A stretch of DNA of 64,000 nucleotides from a bacterium (lineage in GTDB: Bacteria; Patescibacteriota; Dojkabacteria; B142; OLB20), in NCBI GenBank assembly GCA_021463645.1, contig JAJTYI010000004.1:110277-174276 (forward strand), read 5' to 3'. Positions 23,405 to 61,291 of this stretch are shown one piece after another. Each line of letters starts with the position of its first letter. Positions within the stretch are counted from its first letter, which is position 1. The translations under genes and the position numbers were made by a program. The notes below the pieces were generated by a model. The model saw nothing but the letters and a program-made list of their open reading frames with translations. It did not search any database and was not told where the DNA came from.

Positions 23405-25051
23405 ATGATTGTCTTGGAAGATACTTACATGCAAAAACTGATGAAATATGGGGAACTAAAAGCTGAAGATTATTTACGGAGTAAGAAGAAAATATTTAGT
23501 GATGAACAACCTATCTATATAGTTTATGTTAGAAAATCTACTAAAGGAGAGGAGAAACAAGAAAGAAGCATTCCCGATCAACTGAAGCTTTGCAAAAAAA
23601 TAAGTACAGAGAAAAAGCTTAAGGTATATGATTTCTATGAGGAGAAAGGTAGTGCATTCATTTCCGATAATCGTCCAGTATTCCGTCAGATACTGAACCA
23701 CATTTCAAAATCTGGTGGTAGAAAATATAACTCTATCCTTGCATTTTCTCCAGATAGGTTATCCAGAAATATGAAAGAGGCAGGTGAGATTATTGACCTG
23801 CTTCACAGAGGTCAGATGATAGATTTACAGTTTTCCTCTTTCCCGTTTATGAATAATTCAGATGGTTTGATGAGTTTAGGGATTCATTTTGTATTAGCAA
23901 AGCAGTATTCAGACAATGTTTCTATGCATACAAATAAAGGTATTGATGGAACTGTAGAAGAAGGGAAAGGTTTAGCTCATCCAAAATGGGGATATAAATT
24001 TGCTTCAGAAGACTTACGACTTTTTCGACCGGATGGAAGAAATTTCCATCTTATACAAAAAGCTTTTATTCATGCTTTGGAAGTTAAATCCTTAGAAGAA
24101 ATTGCGGTCTTTCTTAATACTGAAGGATTTGAATTTAAAGGAAAGAAGATAATAGTTACTAAGAATAGACTGTCATCGATGTTTGCTAATCCATTTTATG
24201 CAGGTGTTTATGTATCGGGAAGTAAGGTTATAGAGATGGGAAAAGCTGATCCATTATTTGAGCCTGTGATGTCACCTAAGGACTTCTTTCGTATAAGAGA
24301 GCTATATAAGGATAGGAACCATAATTTGAAGCCCAATATTAACAATTTCCTCTTAAGAGGTATGGTATTTTGCAATTATTGCCAAAAAGAAATGAAGCCA
24401 GGGAAGCCTAAAGGAAATGGCGGAAGGTATCTAAGATTTGCATGCACTAATAAAAGATGCCCTAGGCATACTGAACTTGTAAAAGGGACTGCAAAGAAGT
24501 TTAAACGAGAGATTCGGGCAAAGATAATCTTTGAGTTTGTCGATAAGATACTAAAAGATGGCATCAAGGTAGACCAAAAACTGTATAGTAAATTCCTTAA
24601 AGCCGGGCAAGAAGATGCAGTTTATCAACTCAATAAGTTAGAACAAGACTTAAAAATCACTAGGAAAAAGATTACTGAAACTAACAATAAAATTAACTCT
24701 AAATTAGAGATGTTTGAAAGAGCAGAAAAGAAGGATGTCGGGAAGAGAATTGAAAAGCAAATACAGGAACTTGAAGAGGAGTTAACTAAGCTTTTAGATA
24801 TGGAAATCAAGCTTGAAACAGATCTCCAGAAAGCTAAGGAGGCATTAAAGCAGAGTCCTATCTTATATGAAGATTTTGTGAACTTGTTCGAATACTCAAA
24901 TGGGGTAATACAAAACAGTGATAATCAGTACTTGGTTGACTGGATGCTTAGACAGGTATTTATGAACTTCTATGTTGATAGTACCAATGTTGTTACATAT
25001 CAACTAAATCCAATGTTTGAGAACTATCTTAAAGTAGATATGTTTTTTTGA
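23405..25051 (+). CDS. Large serine recombinase
   Basis: 548 aa. Resolvase N-domain IYIVYVRKSTKGEEKQERSIPDQL...FSPDRLSRN. Zn-ribbon CNYCQ...FACTNKRCPRH, followed by a coiled-coil. The start may be Met9 (23429). Confidence 0.85.
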   Translation: MIVLEDTYMQKLMKYGELKAEDYLRSKKKIFSDEQPIYIVYVRKSTKGEEKQERSIPDQLKLCKKISTEKKLKVYDFYEEKGSAFISDNRPVFRQILNHISKSGGRKYNSILAFSPDRLSRNMKEAGEIIDLLHRGQMIDLQFSSFPFMNNSDGLMSLGIHFVLAKQYSDNVSMHTNKGIDGTVEEGKGLAHPKWGYKFASEDLRLFRPDGRNFHLIQKAFIHALEVKSLEEIAVFLNTEGFEFKGKKIIVTKNRLSSMFANPFYAGVYVSGSKVIEMGKADPLFEPVMSPKDFFRIRELYKDRNHNLKPNINNFLLRGMVFCNYCQKEMKPGKPKGNGGRYLRFACTNKRCPRHTELVKGTAKKFKREIRAKIIFEFVDKILKDGIKVDQKLYSKFLKAGQEDAVYQLNKLEQDLKITRKKITETNNKINSKLEMFERAEKKDVGKRIEKQIQELEEELTKLLDMEIKLETDLQKAKEALKQSPILYEDFVNLFEYSNGVIQNSDNQYLVDWMLRQVFMNFYVDSTNVVTYQLNPMFENYLKVDMFF

Positions 25052-25163
25052 GAGTTTGATTGGATTTAAGTTAATTGATGAAATGGGGTGGTCATGCCTA
25101 CGCTAAAGCTACGGCAGACCTTACCCAGTGTATTTCTTCGCAAGCTCAGAAACACTGGGGTGG
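25022..25163 (+). repeat. 141-bp direct repeat, right copy (attR-like), includes last 30 nt of the recombinase gene and the structured unit
   Basis: Matches 17752-17892 with 2 mismatches. Contains TGGGGTGG at 25084-25091 and again at 25156-25163. Confidence 0.9.
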
Positions 25164-25233
25164 CAAATGGGACTCGAACCCACGACCTCCTCTTCCACAG
25201 AGAGGCGCTCTAACCAACTGAGCTATGATCACC
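25156..25233 (-). tRNA. tRNA-His(GTG)-like second copy with 3 substitutions in the 5' acceptor strand (possible pseudo-tRNA / att duplication)
   Basis: Identical to 33337-33414 except that the 5' end reads GGTGATCA instead of GGTGGCAA. This gives two acceptor-stem mismatches (A4.C69, C6.T67) and one T5.G68 wobble. It has its own upstream TATAAT (complement of 25247-25252). Confidence 0.6.
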
Positions 25234-25431
25234 AAATTCATCACCAATTATAACAAATTCCCCACAAGCTCACAAAATAGGCTTATCCCACCCAATGTGT
25301 TAGAATGAAGCAGGATTTAAGTATAAATGAGTTGCTTTTTTTGTCGAGACGTATTTTGTCATAGGAAGTTGTAATTATTAACCTCCTCTAAAGTCTCCAC
25401 TTTACGAATTTTAATCATTAGGTTGATATAT

Positions 25432-33060: not shown

Positions 33061-33339
33061 TATGAAGAATTACGAGCCAAATGGAACAAACAGAAAAAGA
33101 AACACGAGGATAAACTTGAAAGGATTAGCCAAGCAGACGAAGAGTATTATATTACCTCTGCAATGCTACTTGAGCTTGCGTCGAGAAGTTACGAACTATT
33201 TATGGGTTCTGAACCTGAACAAAAAAGGCGACTTATTACCCTTACACTTCAAAACCTAACCATAAAAGATGGAAAACTGCAGTATGACTGGATAAAACCT
33301 TTCGATTCTATCTTCAATTCTGCTAAGAGTCACGAATGG
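33061..33339 (+). pseudogene. Remnant of a large-serine-recombinase C-terminus (copy 2), reading straight into tRNA-His
   Basis: Translates YEELRAKWNKQKKKHEDKLERISQADEEYYITSAMLLELASRSYELFMGSEPEQKRRLITLTLQNLTIKDGKLQYDWIKPFDSIFNSAKSHEWGG. There is no catalytic N-domain or Zn ribbon upstream. The coiled-coil tail resembles tails of large serine recombinases. Confidence 0.5.
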
Positions 33340-33414
33340 GGTGGCAAATGGGACTCGAACCCACGACCTCCTCTTCCACAGAGAGGCGCTCTAACCAACT
33401 GAGCTATTGCCACC
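33337..33414 (-). tRNA. tRNA-His (anticodon GTG), CCA encoded
   Basis: The reverse complement reads G(-1)-GTGGCAA-TA-GCTC-AGTTGGTTA-GAGC-G-CCTCT-CTGTGGA-AGAGG-AGGTC-GTGGG-TTCGAGT-CCCAT-TTGCCAC-C-CCA. It has a perfect 7-bp acceptor stem, an extra 5' G opposite C73 (His identity element) and anticodon GTG. Confidence 0.9.
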
Positions 33415-33654
33415 ATCTTTGATAAATTCTTTTATCAATTCCCTCCATTGACCAGTTTTTAATTCTTTTTCTCTATCGATTGCCTCTTCCTTGGTTCTGA
33501 ACATTTCTTTATAAACTAACTCAAAAGGTATTCTGGTCTTTGTTGATTTCACTTTACCAAGATTGTGTTCACTCACCCTCTTATCAATGTCTTTGGTGTA
33601 ACCAGTATACAACTTTTGATCCTTTTTGCTTTGAATTATGTATATATAAAACAT
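33391..33654 (-). CDS. GIY-YIG nuclease superfamily protein
   Basis: 87 aa. MFYIYIIQSKKDQKLYTGYTKDIDKRVSEHNLGK...ELVYKEMFRTKEEAIDREKELK is the canonical small GIY-YIG (URI) pattern. The last 8 codons (DGGNSSVG*) are a translation of the tRNA-His 5' end. Confidence 0.85.
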   Translation of the reverse strand: MFYIYIIQSKKDQKLYTGYTKDIDKRVSEHNLGKVKSTKTRIPFELVYKEMFRTKEEAIDREKELKTGQWRELIKEFIKDGGNSSVG

Positions 33655-33668
33655 TTTATCAAATAAAT

Positions 33669-33719
33669 CGGCGCTCCCTGCCTGCCGGCAGGCAGGTAAC
33701 CAACTGAACTACAACCACC
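33669..33719 (-). pseudogene. Degenerate duplicate of a tRNA 5' segment (acceptor + D arm) interrupted by a 20-bp palindrome
   Basis: The reverse complement reads GGTGGTTGTAGTTCAGTTGGTTA-[CCTGCCTGCCGGCAGGCAGG]-GAGCGCCG. Compare GGTGGCAATAGCTCAGTTGGTTA-GAGCGCC of the intact tRNA. Confidence 0.6.
33677..33696. repeat. Perfect 20-bp GC-rich palindrome CCTGCCTGCCGGCAGGCAGG
   Basis: Self-complementary and 80% GC in an AT-rich context. It sits exactly in the D-loop position of the tRNA fragment. Confidence 0.9.
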
Positions 33720-34133
33720 AAATTTGTCACGTAAGAGATTATATCAAATTGTAAACTAGAAACTGAGGGATTAAAGAAGAAAATTGTCCGGGATTAAATC
33801 ACTGAACAAGGAACGAAGAAACAAAATGAGGTGTAACAACCCCGGATTTAATCCGGGGGAGTGTCCCGTAAAAGAGCGAACTTGTGAGCGAATTTGTACG
33901 GGACCCAACTACAAATCACGAAATAGATTATATCAAAAAGCGTTCTAGAAACTGAGGTTTTTAGTAGGAAACTTTATTAGAGATAAAATTAAGGAACTAG
34001 GAATGGAGTTTGACAATGACATGCAATCCTCCCTTGTTTGATAAATATCATTATATACTTGTCAAAGTCCCTAGCGATTTTACAATTAGGTTTTGTAGCT
34101 GTATAATCCCGATATATTTTTTATCCAATAACT

Positions 34134-34601: not shown

Positions 34602-35006
34602 ATGAAAAAGCCACTTCTTCTTTCCAGTGCGATTCTAATTCTAATGTCTTTAGTACATATTATCTGGGGGAGGGAGAATTTTCTAAATGAATTTGCGAGT
34701 GATCAATCTGAACTTAAATTGATAGCAACTATTTCCTGGTATCAAGGTGCTGGTGTTATTTTCTTATTGGGAATGTTTCTTGGATTCCAAGCAGTCAGAG
34801 GGGTAATGAATAAAATGTTTATATTATTCTCGCTTTTATCACTTACTGCTAATATTCTCATTTTTGCCATACTCGCTTTAATGAATGACGAGTCAAAATT
34901 ACTACTTTCATCATTTCCACAGTTGGTAACGTTTTCGGTGGTGATAGGGTTACTGATTTATAGCACTAAAAAGAGTAGCGAAATTTCAGAGGAACTAGAT
35001 TCCTAA
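34602..35006 (+). CDS. Small integral membrane protein (about 4 TM helices)
   Basis: 134 aa with four hydrophobic stretches. No family recognised. Confidence 0.5.
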   Translation: MKKPLLLSSAILILMSLVHIIWGRENFLNEFASDQSELKLIATISWYQGAGVIFLLGMFLGFQAVRGVMNKMFILFSLLSLTANILIFAILALMNDESKLLLSSFPQLVTFSVVIGLLIYSTKKSSEISEELDS

Positions 35007-61194: not shown

Positions 61195-61217
61195 GACTCC
61201 TGCCTTCGCAGGAGTGA
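61195..61217. repeat. GC-rich hairpin element, copy 1 (ACTCCTGC-CTTC-GCAGGAGT)
   Basis: 8-bp perfect stem at 61196-61215. Reverse complement of the copy at 61269-61291. Confidence 0.85.
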
Positions 61218-61268: not shown

Positions 61269-61291
61269 TCACTCCTGCGAAGGCAGGAGTC
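61269..61291. repeat. GC-rich hairpin element, copy 2 (ACTCCTGC-GAAG-GCAGGAGT)
   Basis: 8-bp perfect stem at 61271-61290. In inverted orientation relative to copy 1, 51 bp away. Confidence 0.85.

Follow-up and report, generated by a model that had tools for sequence, protein, structure and literature searches.

Insertion of a small, probably selfish GIY-YIG cassette at tRNA-His in a Candidatus Dojkabacteria genome, with the tRNA gene restored downstream

We analysed a 64,000-nucleotide (nt) stretch of a Candidatus Dojkabacteria contig (JAJTYI010000004.1, positions 110,277 to 174,276; hereafter the window), in which an open reading frame (ORF) for a small GIY-YIG type nuclease ends inside an intact tRNA-His gene and is preceded by a second, interrupted copy of the 5' part of a tRNA-His. 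The data may be best explained, at a probability of about 0.7, by a selfish GIY-YIG cassette that was inserted into tRNA-His and left the gene restored. Two alleles of the tRNA have to be distinguished, the CAA-type (acceptor stem GTGGCAA/TTGCCAC) and the TTG-type (acceptor stem GTGGTTG/CAACCAC). Read on the minus strand from 33974 to 33337, in window coordinates, the locus is made up of the following parts:

33905-33974, minus strand: distal promoter/leader copy, with TGATATAAT at 33935-33927 and TTTGTAGTTGG as its 3' end
33863-33904, no strand: GC-rich hairpin GTCCCGTA...TACGGGAC, an older unit shared with the next hairpin
33840-33858, no strand: GC-rich hairpin CCCCGGAT-tta-ATCCGGGG, part of an older remodelling of the leader
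33720-33768, minus strand: native leader and promoter-like segment, with an extended -10 sequence, TGATATAAT, at 33746-33738
33697-33719, minus strand: old tRNA-His 5' fragment GGTGGTTGTAGTTCAGTTGGTTA of 23 nt, corresponding to tRNA nt -1 to 22, TTG-type
33677-33696, no strand: perfect 20-bp palindrome CCTGCCTGCCGGCAGGCAGG, inserted between GGTTA and GAGC in the D-loop/D-stem of the old fragment
33670-33676, minus strand: GAGCGCC, a copy of the seven tRNA bases after the D-loop, in CAA-type spelling
33655-33669, minus strand: linker of 15 nt, GATTTATTTGATAAA, between GAGCGCC and the ATG
33391-33654, minus strand: GIY-YIG ORF of 87 amino acids (aa) (Pfam PF01541, E=1.4e-18)
33414-33423, minus strand: leader-like ATCAAAGATG, directly 5' of the intact tRNA-His and within the ORF
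33337-33413, minus strand: intact tRNA-His(GTG), CAA-type allele (ARAGORN and Rfam RF00005, 70.3 bits)

The intact tRNA-His has G-1 encoded at 33414, C73 and CCA encoded as well, and the same CAA-type sequence is found at six related loci (L001, L217 to L220 and L258, described below). The overlap of the nuclease gene (33654-33391, minus strand) with this tRNA, proposed in the original prediction, was borne out by ARAGORN, Rfam and Pfam: the stop codon TAG is part of the tRNA D-loop (GGTTAGAGC), and the C-terminal codons (..K D G G N S S V G) consist of a leader-like sequence of about 9 nt followed by tRNA nt -1 to 22. The conserved core of the ORF comprises about 76-79 codons, whereas the tail IKDGGNSSVG and the stop codon are supplied by the duplicated leader/tRNA sequence. 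The duplication had been predicted to begin at tRNA nt -1; the 5' part of the tRNA is indeed duplicated, but the duplicated segment starts about 9 nt upstream of the tRNA, its 5' edge being ATCAAAGATG, which is similar to the leaders GACAAACATG (L217) and GACAAATATG (L216) of loci lacking the nuclease gene. No Shine-Dalgarno motif was seen in the 15-nt linker (33655-33669), the initial 6 nt of which are kept in L001.

When the 400 nt upstream were aligned locally with the tRNA, the similarity of the fragment had a z-score of 6.6 and was equalled in 0 of 200 shuffles, and in relatives the stranded fragment agrees exactly with the tRNA beside it (z=18.6); a chance similarity is ruled out by both results. 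Farther out, the promoter/leader sequence is repeated as had been predicted (33727-33785 versus 33916-33974, 75% identity across 59 nt), both GC-rich hairpins were confirmed, and a spacer of about 70 nt separates the 33840-33858 hairpin from the proximal promoter-like segment. The window has a G+C content of 35% and contains ten GC-rich hairpins with stems of at least 7 bp in its 64 kb, compared with 2-4 in shuffled sequences; all ten have stems of at least 8 bp, and six of them lie within tRNA-His-related sequence. An Rfam scan of the window gave two tRNAs only, with no intron, riboswitch or other known RNA family near the ORF, and the predicted RNA stability of the 5' region beyond the hairpin itself was not unusual (z=-0.5). 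A group I intron with its endonuclease was rejected on these two results and on the finding that the 5' exon is duplicated, not spliced.

The corresponding loci of relatives were fetched from Candidatus Dojkabacteria metagenome contigs (loci carry L numbers), with the neighbouring membrane-protein gene (34602-35006) as the anchor, 93%-identical homologues of which are assigned by NCBI to Candidatus Dojkabacteria (Patescibacteria); the identity of this gene was 93% in L219 and L220, 85% in L001-L006, 82% in L258, 80% in L259, 76% in L217 and L218, and 74% in L216. Four of the loci (L216, L217, L218 and L259) are empty. Specifically, beside the same neighbour gene the promoter and leader run without a break into an intact tRNA-His, and the GIY-YIG gene, the fragment and the palindrome are all missing from these sites; the junction in L217 and L218 reads ...TTTGATATAATCTTTTACGTGACAAACATG|GTGGCAATAGCTCAG..., and a tblastn search of these two loci with the GIY-YIG protein gave no match at E<=10. 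At least eight loci (L001-L006, L219 and L220) are occupied and have the same layout as the window, the duplicated 5' part included. Relative to the empty site, the inserted block lies between GGTTA and GAGC of the D-loop and consists of the palindrome, GAGCGCC, the linker, the ORF core and a new leader of about 9 nt with tRNA nt -1 to 22; it can equally be described as a leader/tRNA 5' duplication of about 39 bp placed around the ORF, with the upstream copy split by the palindrome. At the level of sequence, this comparison of empty and occupied loci demonstrates the insertion of the cassette at tRNA-His that the original prediction had inferred, and presence/absence polymorphism of this kind, at one conserved site, is among the features expected of a free-standing homing endonuclease gene. 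Since the fragment is present in every occupied relative, the arrangement is not an ancestral operon without duplicated tRNA fragments. An assembly artefact is also ruled out: ENA, JGI and Logan contigs, assembled independently, share the layout.

The distal promoter repeat and the two GC-rich hairpins, which the original prediction had described together with the insertion, do not belong to it. The distal promoter copy is found at empty loci, and the 33840-33858 hairpin at the empty loci L216-L218, this hairpin being also present in L219 and L220 but absent from L001, and the 33863-33904 hairpin occurs at the empty loci L216 (in two copies), L217, L218 and L259, with two units in tandem in L216. 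Because they are also at empty sites, the distal promoter copy and both hairpins must be older than the insertion. A search by tblastn of the empty-site loci with the same spacer found no GIY-YIG remnant in the distal spacer (E<=10).

The fragment upstream of the ORF had been regarded as a degenerate copy of the tRNA split by the palindrome. Fragment and palindrome are both real, but the fragment, with its four mismatches to the adjacent tRNA, is an exact copy of the other allele. The intact tRNA-His of the empty locus L259 is of the TTG-type (GGTGGTTGTAGTTCAGTTGGTTAGAACGCC...CATCAACCACCCCA), with compensated changes in the acceptor stem and in the D stem (GTTC/GAAC) and the remainder identical to the CAA-type, and the window fragment is identical to it (23 of 23 positions). 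On the right-hand side of the palindrome the sequence is CAA-type throughout, from GAGCGCC on its incoming side, for which the TTG-type counterpart would be GAACGCC, to the whole rebuilt tRNA with its 3' acceptor strand. Because the sequence is TTG-type on the left and CAA-type on the right, the palindrome is the boundary between old and incoming DNA. Judged by its spelling, the window fragment is an untouched remnant of the previous resident tRNA-His gene and not a decayed copy of the adjacent one, and since the stranded fragment belongs to a different allele, the incoming cassette would seem to have brought a tRNA allele of its own. The combination of a TTG-type remnant with a CAA-type rebuilt tRNA fits co-conversion, for which gene conversion from the distal remnant is an alternative in the window. 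The fragments of L219 and L220 combine the two spellings (CAA...GTTC), and that of L001 is CAA-type throughout, both of which would fit gene conversion at a later time by the intact tRNA next to them. At a tRNA-Asp (L017) and a tRNA-Lys (L168), too, pseudo-copies were observed that belong to a different allele.

The same tRNA-His site carries a different GIY-YIG gene (79 aa) in L258, with the breakpoint after nt 14, a different hairpin (CCCTC..GAGGG) inserted after nt 7 of the stranded fragment, and a stranded fragment that is again TTG-type. The L258 protein shares 46-50% identity with its best matches among the collected family members, a set that did not include the window cassette. Because gene, breakpoint and hairpin all differ, the tRNA-His site has been invaded recurrently. 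In addition, L258 contains at 285-990 three tandem leader units of about 50 nt (GGCTTGCCA..), two of which carry remnants composed of a hairpin, ATAAA and TAG(C/T)TC, suggesting that several successive invasions may have taken place in the L258 lineage too. The occupied lineages, L258 and the empty L259 are approximately equidistant by neighbour-protein identity (80-89%), and the distribution is therefore one of patchy presence and absence, not of a clean single gain.

The 87-aa product is a member of the GIY-YIG superfamily (PF01541, 67.4 bits against a cut-off of 22.6). Residues Y16, G18, R26, H30, N31 and E62 are invariant in 14 diverse homologues, and Y3 and Y5 are conserved among close relatives. 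Profile searches placed it closest to UPF0213 proteins (1zg2, BH0048, E=3.1e-17; 1ywl, E=1.7e-12), with Slx1 next and I-TevI at E=0.003, and with its single domain it falls in the UPF0213/bacterial Slx1-like subfamily. An AlphaFold2 model had a mean confidence (predicted local distance difference test, pLDDT) of 82 and the topology E-E-H-H-E-H-H, in agreement with the three-stranded sheet and helices of the GIY-YIG fold; residues 1-66 match the profile of the GIY-YIG catalytic domain, residues 68-80 form an extra helix as in 78-aa homologues, and the last 8-10 residues, which are encoded by the tRNA, are disordered in the model (pLDDT below 50 for residues 82-87). In a Foldseek search of the PDB, 1zg2 (E=1.7e-4) was the sole match below 0.001, Slx1 followed at 0.011-0.064, and the catalytic domains of Slx1 and I-TevI together spanned 0.011-0.18. 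Neither Pfam, nor the alignment, nor the model revealed a second or DNA-binding domain of the kind found in homing endonucleases in the 87 aa. The ORF core is under purifying selection, with dN/dS, the ratio of nonsynonymous to synonymous divergence, at 0.15 and dS at 0.73 between the window and L001. The family comprises 8,250 clusters (50% identity, E<=1e-10), most of the 150 best relatives have 80-130 aa, and the closest nuclease relative among GTDB species representatives has 61% identity. No description of the function or genomic behaviour of YhbQ/UPF0213 was found in the literature searched. The COG4123 methyltransferases include the tRNA m6A37 methyltransferase YfiC. In a 2006 survey of GIY-YIG domains, fusion or adjacency to COG4123 methyltransferases and to a TrmH-like domain was reported for bacterial Slx1-like domains, which were suggested to be linked to RNA metabolism (PMC1564403).

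We surveyed 79 GTDB genomes of Patescibacteria, Omnitrophota, Bacteroidota/Ignavibacteria, Nitrospirae, Planctomycetes and others for the surroundings of family genes, and found the same architecture at many tRNA genes in several phyla. All 33 tRNAs within 320 nt of a family ORF were on the nuclease strand and none was on the opposite strand, and tRNA density was 0.44 per kb near the ORF versus 0.056 per kb elsewhere. In 16 of 89 copies a same-strand tRNA with one of 14 anticodons starts between -40 and +300 nt of the stop codon, and about 11 further copies have a tRNA just upstream. Thirteen survey loci in which the ORF overlaps the tRNA or lies within a few nt of it were taken for closer comparison, and ten of these have an upstream tRNA duplicate. 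In nine of the ten this is the 5' part with a GC-rich hairpin, usually in or beside the D-arm (for example, at tRNA-Gln in L024 and L075, tRNA-Ile in L029, tRNA-Cys in L054 and L056, tRNA-His in L031 and tRNA-Asp in L017); such 5' duplicates start 3-5 nt before the tRNA and mostly end at nt 25-38, with the hairpin inserted into them or replacing a part. At L087 (tRNA-Pro), the remaining one of the ten, it is the upstream copy that is intact and the downstream copy that has the hairpin, in its D-arm. At L034 (tRNA-Asn), the identical 20-mer of the window is found at the identical GGTA|GAGC position, and at L017 the duplicate is a whole pseudo-tRNA-Asp with its own compensated acceptor stem, hairpins having replaced the anticodon and T arms. 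Where the intact tRNA is upstream of the ORF, a hairpin-bearing 3' duplicate lies downstream (L044, L065 and L083). Of 80 testable copies, 18 have flanking direct repeats with z>=5, including a few that are not at a tRNA. Whichever the orientation, the break in the old fragment falls in the region from the D-arm to the anticodon loop, which we propose as the probable place of the original break. A duplication starting exactly at the RNase P site, which would hint at an RNA intermediate, is ruled out, since about 3-15 nt of leader are duplicated too.

Distant metagenome homologues likewise lie just upstream of same-strand tRNAs (P0007, tRNA-Lys; P0014, tRNA-Cys). Among protein nearest neighbours, 12 of 18 share the tRNA type, with several pairs of this small set being near-duplicates and some labels imprecise, which hints, suggestively only, that subfamilies may track tRNA type (Gln, Pro, Cys, Asn, His and Lys). 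Tandem family genes, two or three in number, were observed in L065 (2405-3354), L023, L046, L053 and L071; those of L065 come after a tRNA-Cys, with hairpin-bearing tRNA 3' fragments between them. A phage origin of the family was rejected, only two viral loci having been found with the patterns used. A prior description of a bacterial GIY-YIG/tRNA association or of self-complementing UPF0213 genes was not found in the literature searched, the coverage of which was incomplete.

These observations may be brought together as follows. A minimal cassette, consisting of a single-domain UPF0213/Slx1-like ORF of about 240 bp, would have invaded tRNA-His at the D-loop. We infer that the protein cuts tRNA genes, that the cut falls in the D-arm, and that the break is followed by homing-like repair in which the palindrome may also have a role; the left end would be retained up to the break, and the donor would be copied through the palindrome, the ORF and the tRNA 3' end, with co-conversion of the linked allele. 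A complete tRNA-His would thereby be rebuilt directly downstream of the ORF by a fresh 5' copy, and the initial 23 nt of the old gene would be stranded upstream with its native leader and promoter. Only whole-tRNA conversions would survive, because a chimera of a CAA-type 5' part and a TTG-type 3' part has a mismatched acceptor stem, and selection would remove such chimeric tRNAs. No promoter, terminator or stop codon belonging to the cassette itself could be recognised, and it would most likely use the tRNA promoter.

The proximal promoter-like segment (33720-33768), which abuts the intact tRNA-His directly at the empty sites L217 and L218, now lies about 330 nt upstream of it in the window. 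It presumably functions as a promoter; a -35/-10 scanner makes no call there. As no conserved promoter was found between this stranded promoter and tRNA-His, and as tRNAs near family ORFs show the 33:0 strand bias, tRNA-His is most likely co-transcribed with the nuclease gene from the displaced tRNA promoter. RNase P cleaves at the 5' end of tRNAs. Since the ORF stop codon lies within the tRNA D-loop, the co-transcript, if there is one, would lose the stop codon when cut by RNase P, and one transcript could give the complete ORF or the tRNA, never both.

Several observations weigh against a selfish cassette with these properties. The predicted nuclease is a catalytic domain only, without the specificity module of I-TevI or SegB, and only about 30% of the sampled family copies adjoin a detectable tRNA. 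Independent transcription of the tRNA could come from a promoter-like match (10 of 12 positions) at the ORF start (33662-33635), a match that L001 does not share. The TTG spelling of the window fragment could be due to gene conversion from the distal remnant TTTGTAGTTGG, which looks like a shortened TTG-type tRNA 5' remnant, although L258, where the stranded fragment is TTG-type and that remnant is absent, argues against such a conversion. Finally, selection maintained over a dS of about 0.7 and a cassette shared by window-type and L001-type loci would equally fit a vertically inherited useful gene.

The last point leads to the alternative that survives best, in which the gene would be a domesticated, host-beneficial nuclease linked to the tRNA (serving, for example, in tRNA or tDNA maintenance, processing or defence) and co-transcribed with it for regulation, the duplications being by-products of old rearrangements. 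A useful gene would account for the low dN/dS, for the strict co-orientation with tRNAs, for the 54 of 56 identical positions in fragment, palindrome and linker between L219 and L001, and for the association of Slx1-like domains with TrmH-like proteins and COG4123 methyltransferases (PMC1564403). It would be harder to reconcile with four close empty-site genomes that do without the gene, with a different family member at the same site in L258, with copies that at 14 anticodons are each flanked by partial duplicates of their own host tRNA, with the majority of family copies that adjoin no tRNA, and with a remnant allele that differs from the functional one, and we consider domestication unlikely.

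The exact 20-bp palindrome is a subject in itself. It is present as a single copy in the window, where 0 are expected by chance, and is conserved at 20 of 20 positions in L001, L219 and L220 despite the dS of 0.7 in the adjacent ORF. Between L219 and L001 the fragment, the palindrome and the first linker bases are identical at 54 of 56 positions, whereas the upstream promoter region cannot be aligned; for the fragment this could reflect gene conversion, and for the palindrome the perfect conservation suggests either constraint or re-insertion. The same 20-mer occupies the same D-arm position in L034, L254 and L174. Outside these loci it is widespread, with exact copies in at least 120 metagenome stretches and 35 viral stretches (L096-L175 and L223-L257; at least 155 together) from contigs of 29%-71% G+C; it is mostly intergenic, and some contigs have 3-6 copies. 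In 60 of 80 copies the palindrome is not longer than 20 nt, indicating a discrete unit, and it stands between short imperfect direct repeats in 17.5% of copies versus 2.3% of controls (Mann-Whitney p=5e-4). Measured against miniature inverted-repeat transposable elements (MITEs) and repetitive extragenic palindromic (REP) sequences, it thus has sharp ends and a wide distribution over at least 155 stretches, with direct repeats in just about 18% of copies. No cognate enzyme was identified for the 20-mer, and its sequence was not found in the literature searched. It is not an intrinsic terminator in the window, having no adjacent U-run and no call from a terminator scanner.

The 20-mer is not exclusive to GIY-YIG/tRNA contexts, as only about 8% of those sampled lie in tRNA-like sequence (about 7 of 85 metagenomic and about 3 of 45 viral copies). 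About 5 of about 130 sampled copies (about 4%) are within 150 nt of a family GIY-YIG gene, and these are always in a pseudo-tRNA; D-arm copies in a pseudo-tRNA preceding the ORF were found in L139 (Asn), L168 (Lys, twice) and L254 (Asn-like), and in L168 the pseudo-copy is Lys-UUU beside an intact Lys-CUU. L174 (Val) has the 20-mer inserted in the D-loop, with no GIY-YIG match within the part of the contig examined. Within 200 nt of a family ORF there is a 4-fold enrichment of GC-rich hairpins in general, which is confounded by intergenic location. Some further sites were noted. In the viral loci L247 and L224 the 20-mer is at the variable-loop position of a tRNA-Met-like gene; ARAGORN still calls a tRNA in L247, as if the 20-mer were a long extra arm, and calls none in L224. 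From about position 815 of L254 the downstream tRNA copy is interrupted after the anticodon-stem region by structured GC-rich sequence, possibly an intron or a further insert, and ARAGORN calls no tRNA there. In the window itself, two mutually related 20-nt hairpins, ACTCCTGCCTTCGCAGGAGT at 61196-61215 and ACTCCTGCGAAGGCAGGAGT at 61271-61290, lie 75 nt apart.

The palindrome and the hairpins might instead be the mobile entity, or its cis site, with the nuclease mobilising it through hairpins or cruciforms in the manner of REP sequences and their REP-associated tyrosine transposases (RAYTs), and with solo palindromes being non-autonomous copies. Such a system would explain why the 20-mer is so widely dispersed, why its ends are sharp and its direct repeats more frequent than in controls, why the few copies near family genes are always in pseudo-tRNAs, and why all 20 positions are conserved; the hairpin enrichment around family ORFs and the presence of Slx1, a structure-specific nuclease, among the closest solved relatives would also be in line with it. 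However, about 95% of the sampled 20-mers lie away from any GIY-YIG gene, such a hairpin is missing from many family copies, the enrichment of hairpins is confounded as stated, and the hairpin tracks the pseudo-tRNA copy, whether up- or downstream, and not a fixed position relative to the ORF. We also know of no GIY-YIG enzyme that catalyses transposition, and we regard a palindrome-centred system as quite improbable. Because the hairpin tracks the pseudo-copy and not the ORF, we favour two readings of the hairpins, either as small promiscuous inserts that may be tolerated in a dead copy or as inserts that may be selected because they disrupt the direct repeat or the target of the nuclease; the palindrome might also be a cis site of the nuclease itself.

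The window also contains a second tRNA-His copy:

25156-25232, minus strand: second tRNA-His copy (ARAGORN; Rfam, 56.7 bits)

The 3' 71 nt of this copy are 100% identical to the first, whereas its 5' acceptor strand GTGATCA forms two mismatches and one G-U pair with TTGCCAC. It has its own TATAAT and a leader, GTGATGAATTTGGTG, similar to the native leader, and is probably a chimeric pseudo-tRNA composed of a resident 5' end and a converted 3' part. The similarity of its leader had been noted in the original prediction; the pattern GTGAYRAATTTGGTG is found in the window only at 25230-25244 and 33716-33730, a result that shows uniqueness only, as these sites are where the pattern comes from. Three places in the window, 25060-25162, 17790-17892 and 12269-12346, have a repeat of about 80-100 nt that begins in the tRNA 3' end (CCCCA); within it are a hairpin, CCCAGTGT..ACACTGGG, and a 3' piece similar to tRNA-His, AGGTC[hairpin]TGACCACCCCA. 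The true chromosomal flank, as seen in L003, reappears at 12191-12277 (29 of 29 aa), and the approximately 21 kb downstream of tRNA-His therefore look like stacked islands with these repeats as their boundaries. A large serine recombinase is encoded at 23405-25051 of the window, and one is located beside tRNA-His in L001, L005, L218, L220 and L259. In L001 (6253-7929), and likewise in L005, L219 and L220, the recombinase ORF is on the opposite strand and extends into tRNA-His, which places the island junction inside or at the 3' part of the tRNA. Elsewhere in the window, the segment 46001-47000 has a G+C peak of 0.46 (versus about 0.35) with strongly negative GC skew and no Rfam match.

It is very improbable that the cassette is the edge or cargo of an integrase-borne island that uses tRNA-His as its attachment site, for although tRNA-His is an integration hot spot with downstream DNA that differs among L001-L006, with a serine recombinase beside it in the window and several relatives and with tRNA-His-like repeats downstream, the cassette lies 5' of the tRNA and the variable islands 3', the cassette does not vary with the DNA downstream, L218 and L259 have the recombinase without the cassette while L003 and L004 have the cassette without the recombinase, and the cassette, encoding no recombinase of its own, lacks the hallmark of an integrase island.

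Phage T4 SegB is a protein of about 220 aa with a DNA-binding region. Among the systems compared, it is the one that the selfish cassette would appear to work most like. SegB is described as a GIY-YIG homing endonuclease that is encoded in a tRNA gene cluster, promotes the inheritance of its own gene together with adjacent tRNA genes, and has as its target a 27-bp site centred on the T-psi-C stem-loop motif of tRNA genes (PMC2330249). The two share a GIY-YIG gene among tRNA genes, and the window cassette too seems to travel with a linked tRNA allele. Unlike SegB, which is a phage gene, the window protein is an 87-aa catalytic domain of the UPF0213/Slx1 type; its family is found on the chromosomes of the candidate phyla radiation (CPR) and of other bacteria but rarely in viral contigs, its junctions fall between the D-arm and the anticodon stem, and part of the tRNA remains in duplicate.

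Paquin, Laforest and Lang (1994) reportedly described a GIY-YIG ORF fused to atp6 in Allomyces mitochondria, where the insertion is said to bring a copy of the interrupted part, so that the gene is functional and the displaced original is a pseudo-fragment. That case is likewise said to concern the 3' end of a protein gene in an organelle, whereas the window cassette is bacterial, brings a tRNA 5' part (in some relatives a 3' part) and leaves a displaced fragment with GC-rich palindromes. The UPF0213 proteins (of the BH0048, EF2693 and E. coli YhbQ type) and the Slx1 domain are the best sequence and fold matches and have the same size and a single domain, but Slx1 works with Slx4 on branched DNA and no partner is evident here. 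Integrative elements that target tRNA genes resemble the cassette in their self-complementing insertion and in the flanking direct repeat of tRNA sequence; they differ in using tyrosine or serine recombinases, typically at the tRNA 3' end, and in being kilobases long, whereas the cassette has about 0.3 kb, encodes a nuclease only and restores the 5' part of the tRNA. GC-rich palindromic inserts in AT-rich DNA, including structural-RNA genes, have precedents in yeast mitochondrial GC clusters, Rickettsia palindromic elements and REP sequences. The palindrome described here is, like these, short, dispersed and GC-rich, but consists of a single exact 20-mer across very different genomes and viruses.

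Extended to the family, the data allow a tentative proposal, which we hold with considerable reserve. A large part of the UPF0213/Slx1-like family (about 80 aa, at least 8,250 clusters) may consist of minimal homing elements that parasitise tRNA genes across phyla, especially in the CPR. Such elements would cut in the D-arm to anticodon-stem region, perhaps recognising tDNA structure and not sequence, and would spread with a linked resistant tRNA allele, leaving hairpin-riddled remnants; the 20-bp palindrome would be a cis-acting end or nuclease site that also exists alone in hundreds of genomes and viruses.

For the family, this would give a very large group of proteins a concrete and testable role as selfish cassettes targeting tRNA genes, and the structure of tRNA genes could be what the nuclease, as a compact enzyme, is specific for. 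That unrelated genomes and viruses have an exact 20-bp palindrome in common is a phenomenon in its own right. The locus further suggests how a mobile gene can enter an essential and highly conserved RNA gene non-lethally, by bringing the 5' half or a whole linked allele and borrowing a promoter and a stop codon. It would imply that some tRNAs are expressed solely as the tail of an mRNA and that tRNA alleles in the streamlined genomes of the CPR may be replaced horizontally, hitch-hiking with the nuclease. The relatives found beside many tRNAs in many phyla suggest that this kind of tRNA-gene parasite, apparently undescribed, may be widespread.

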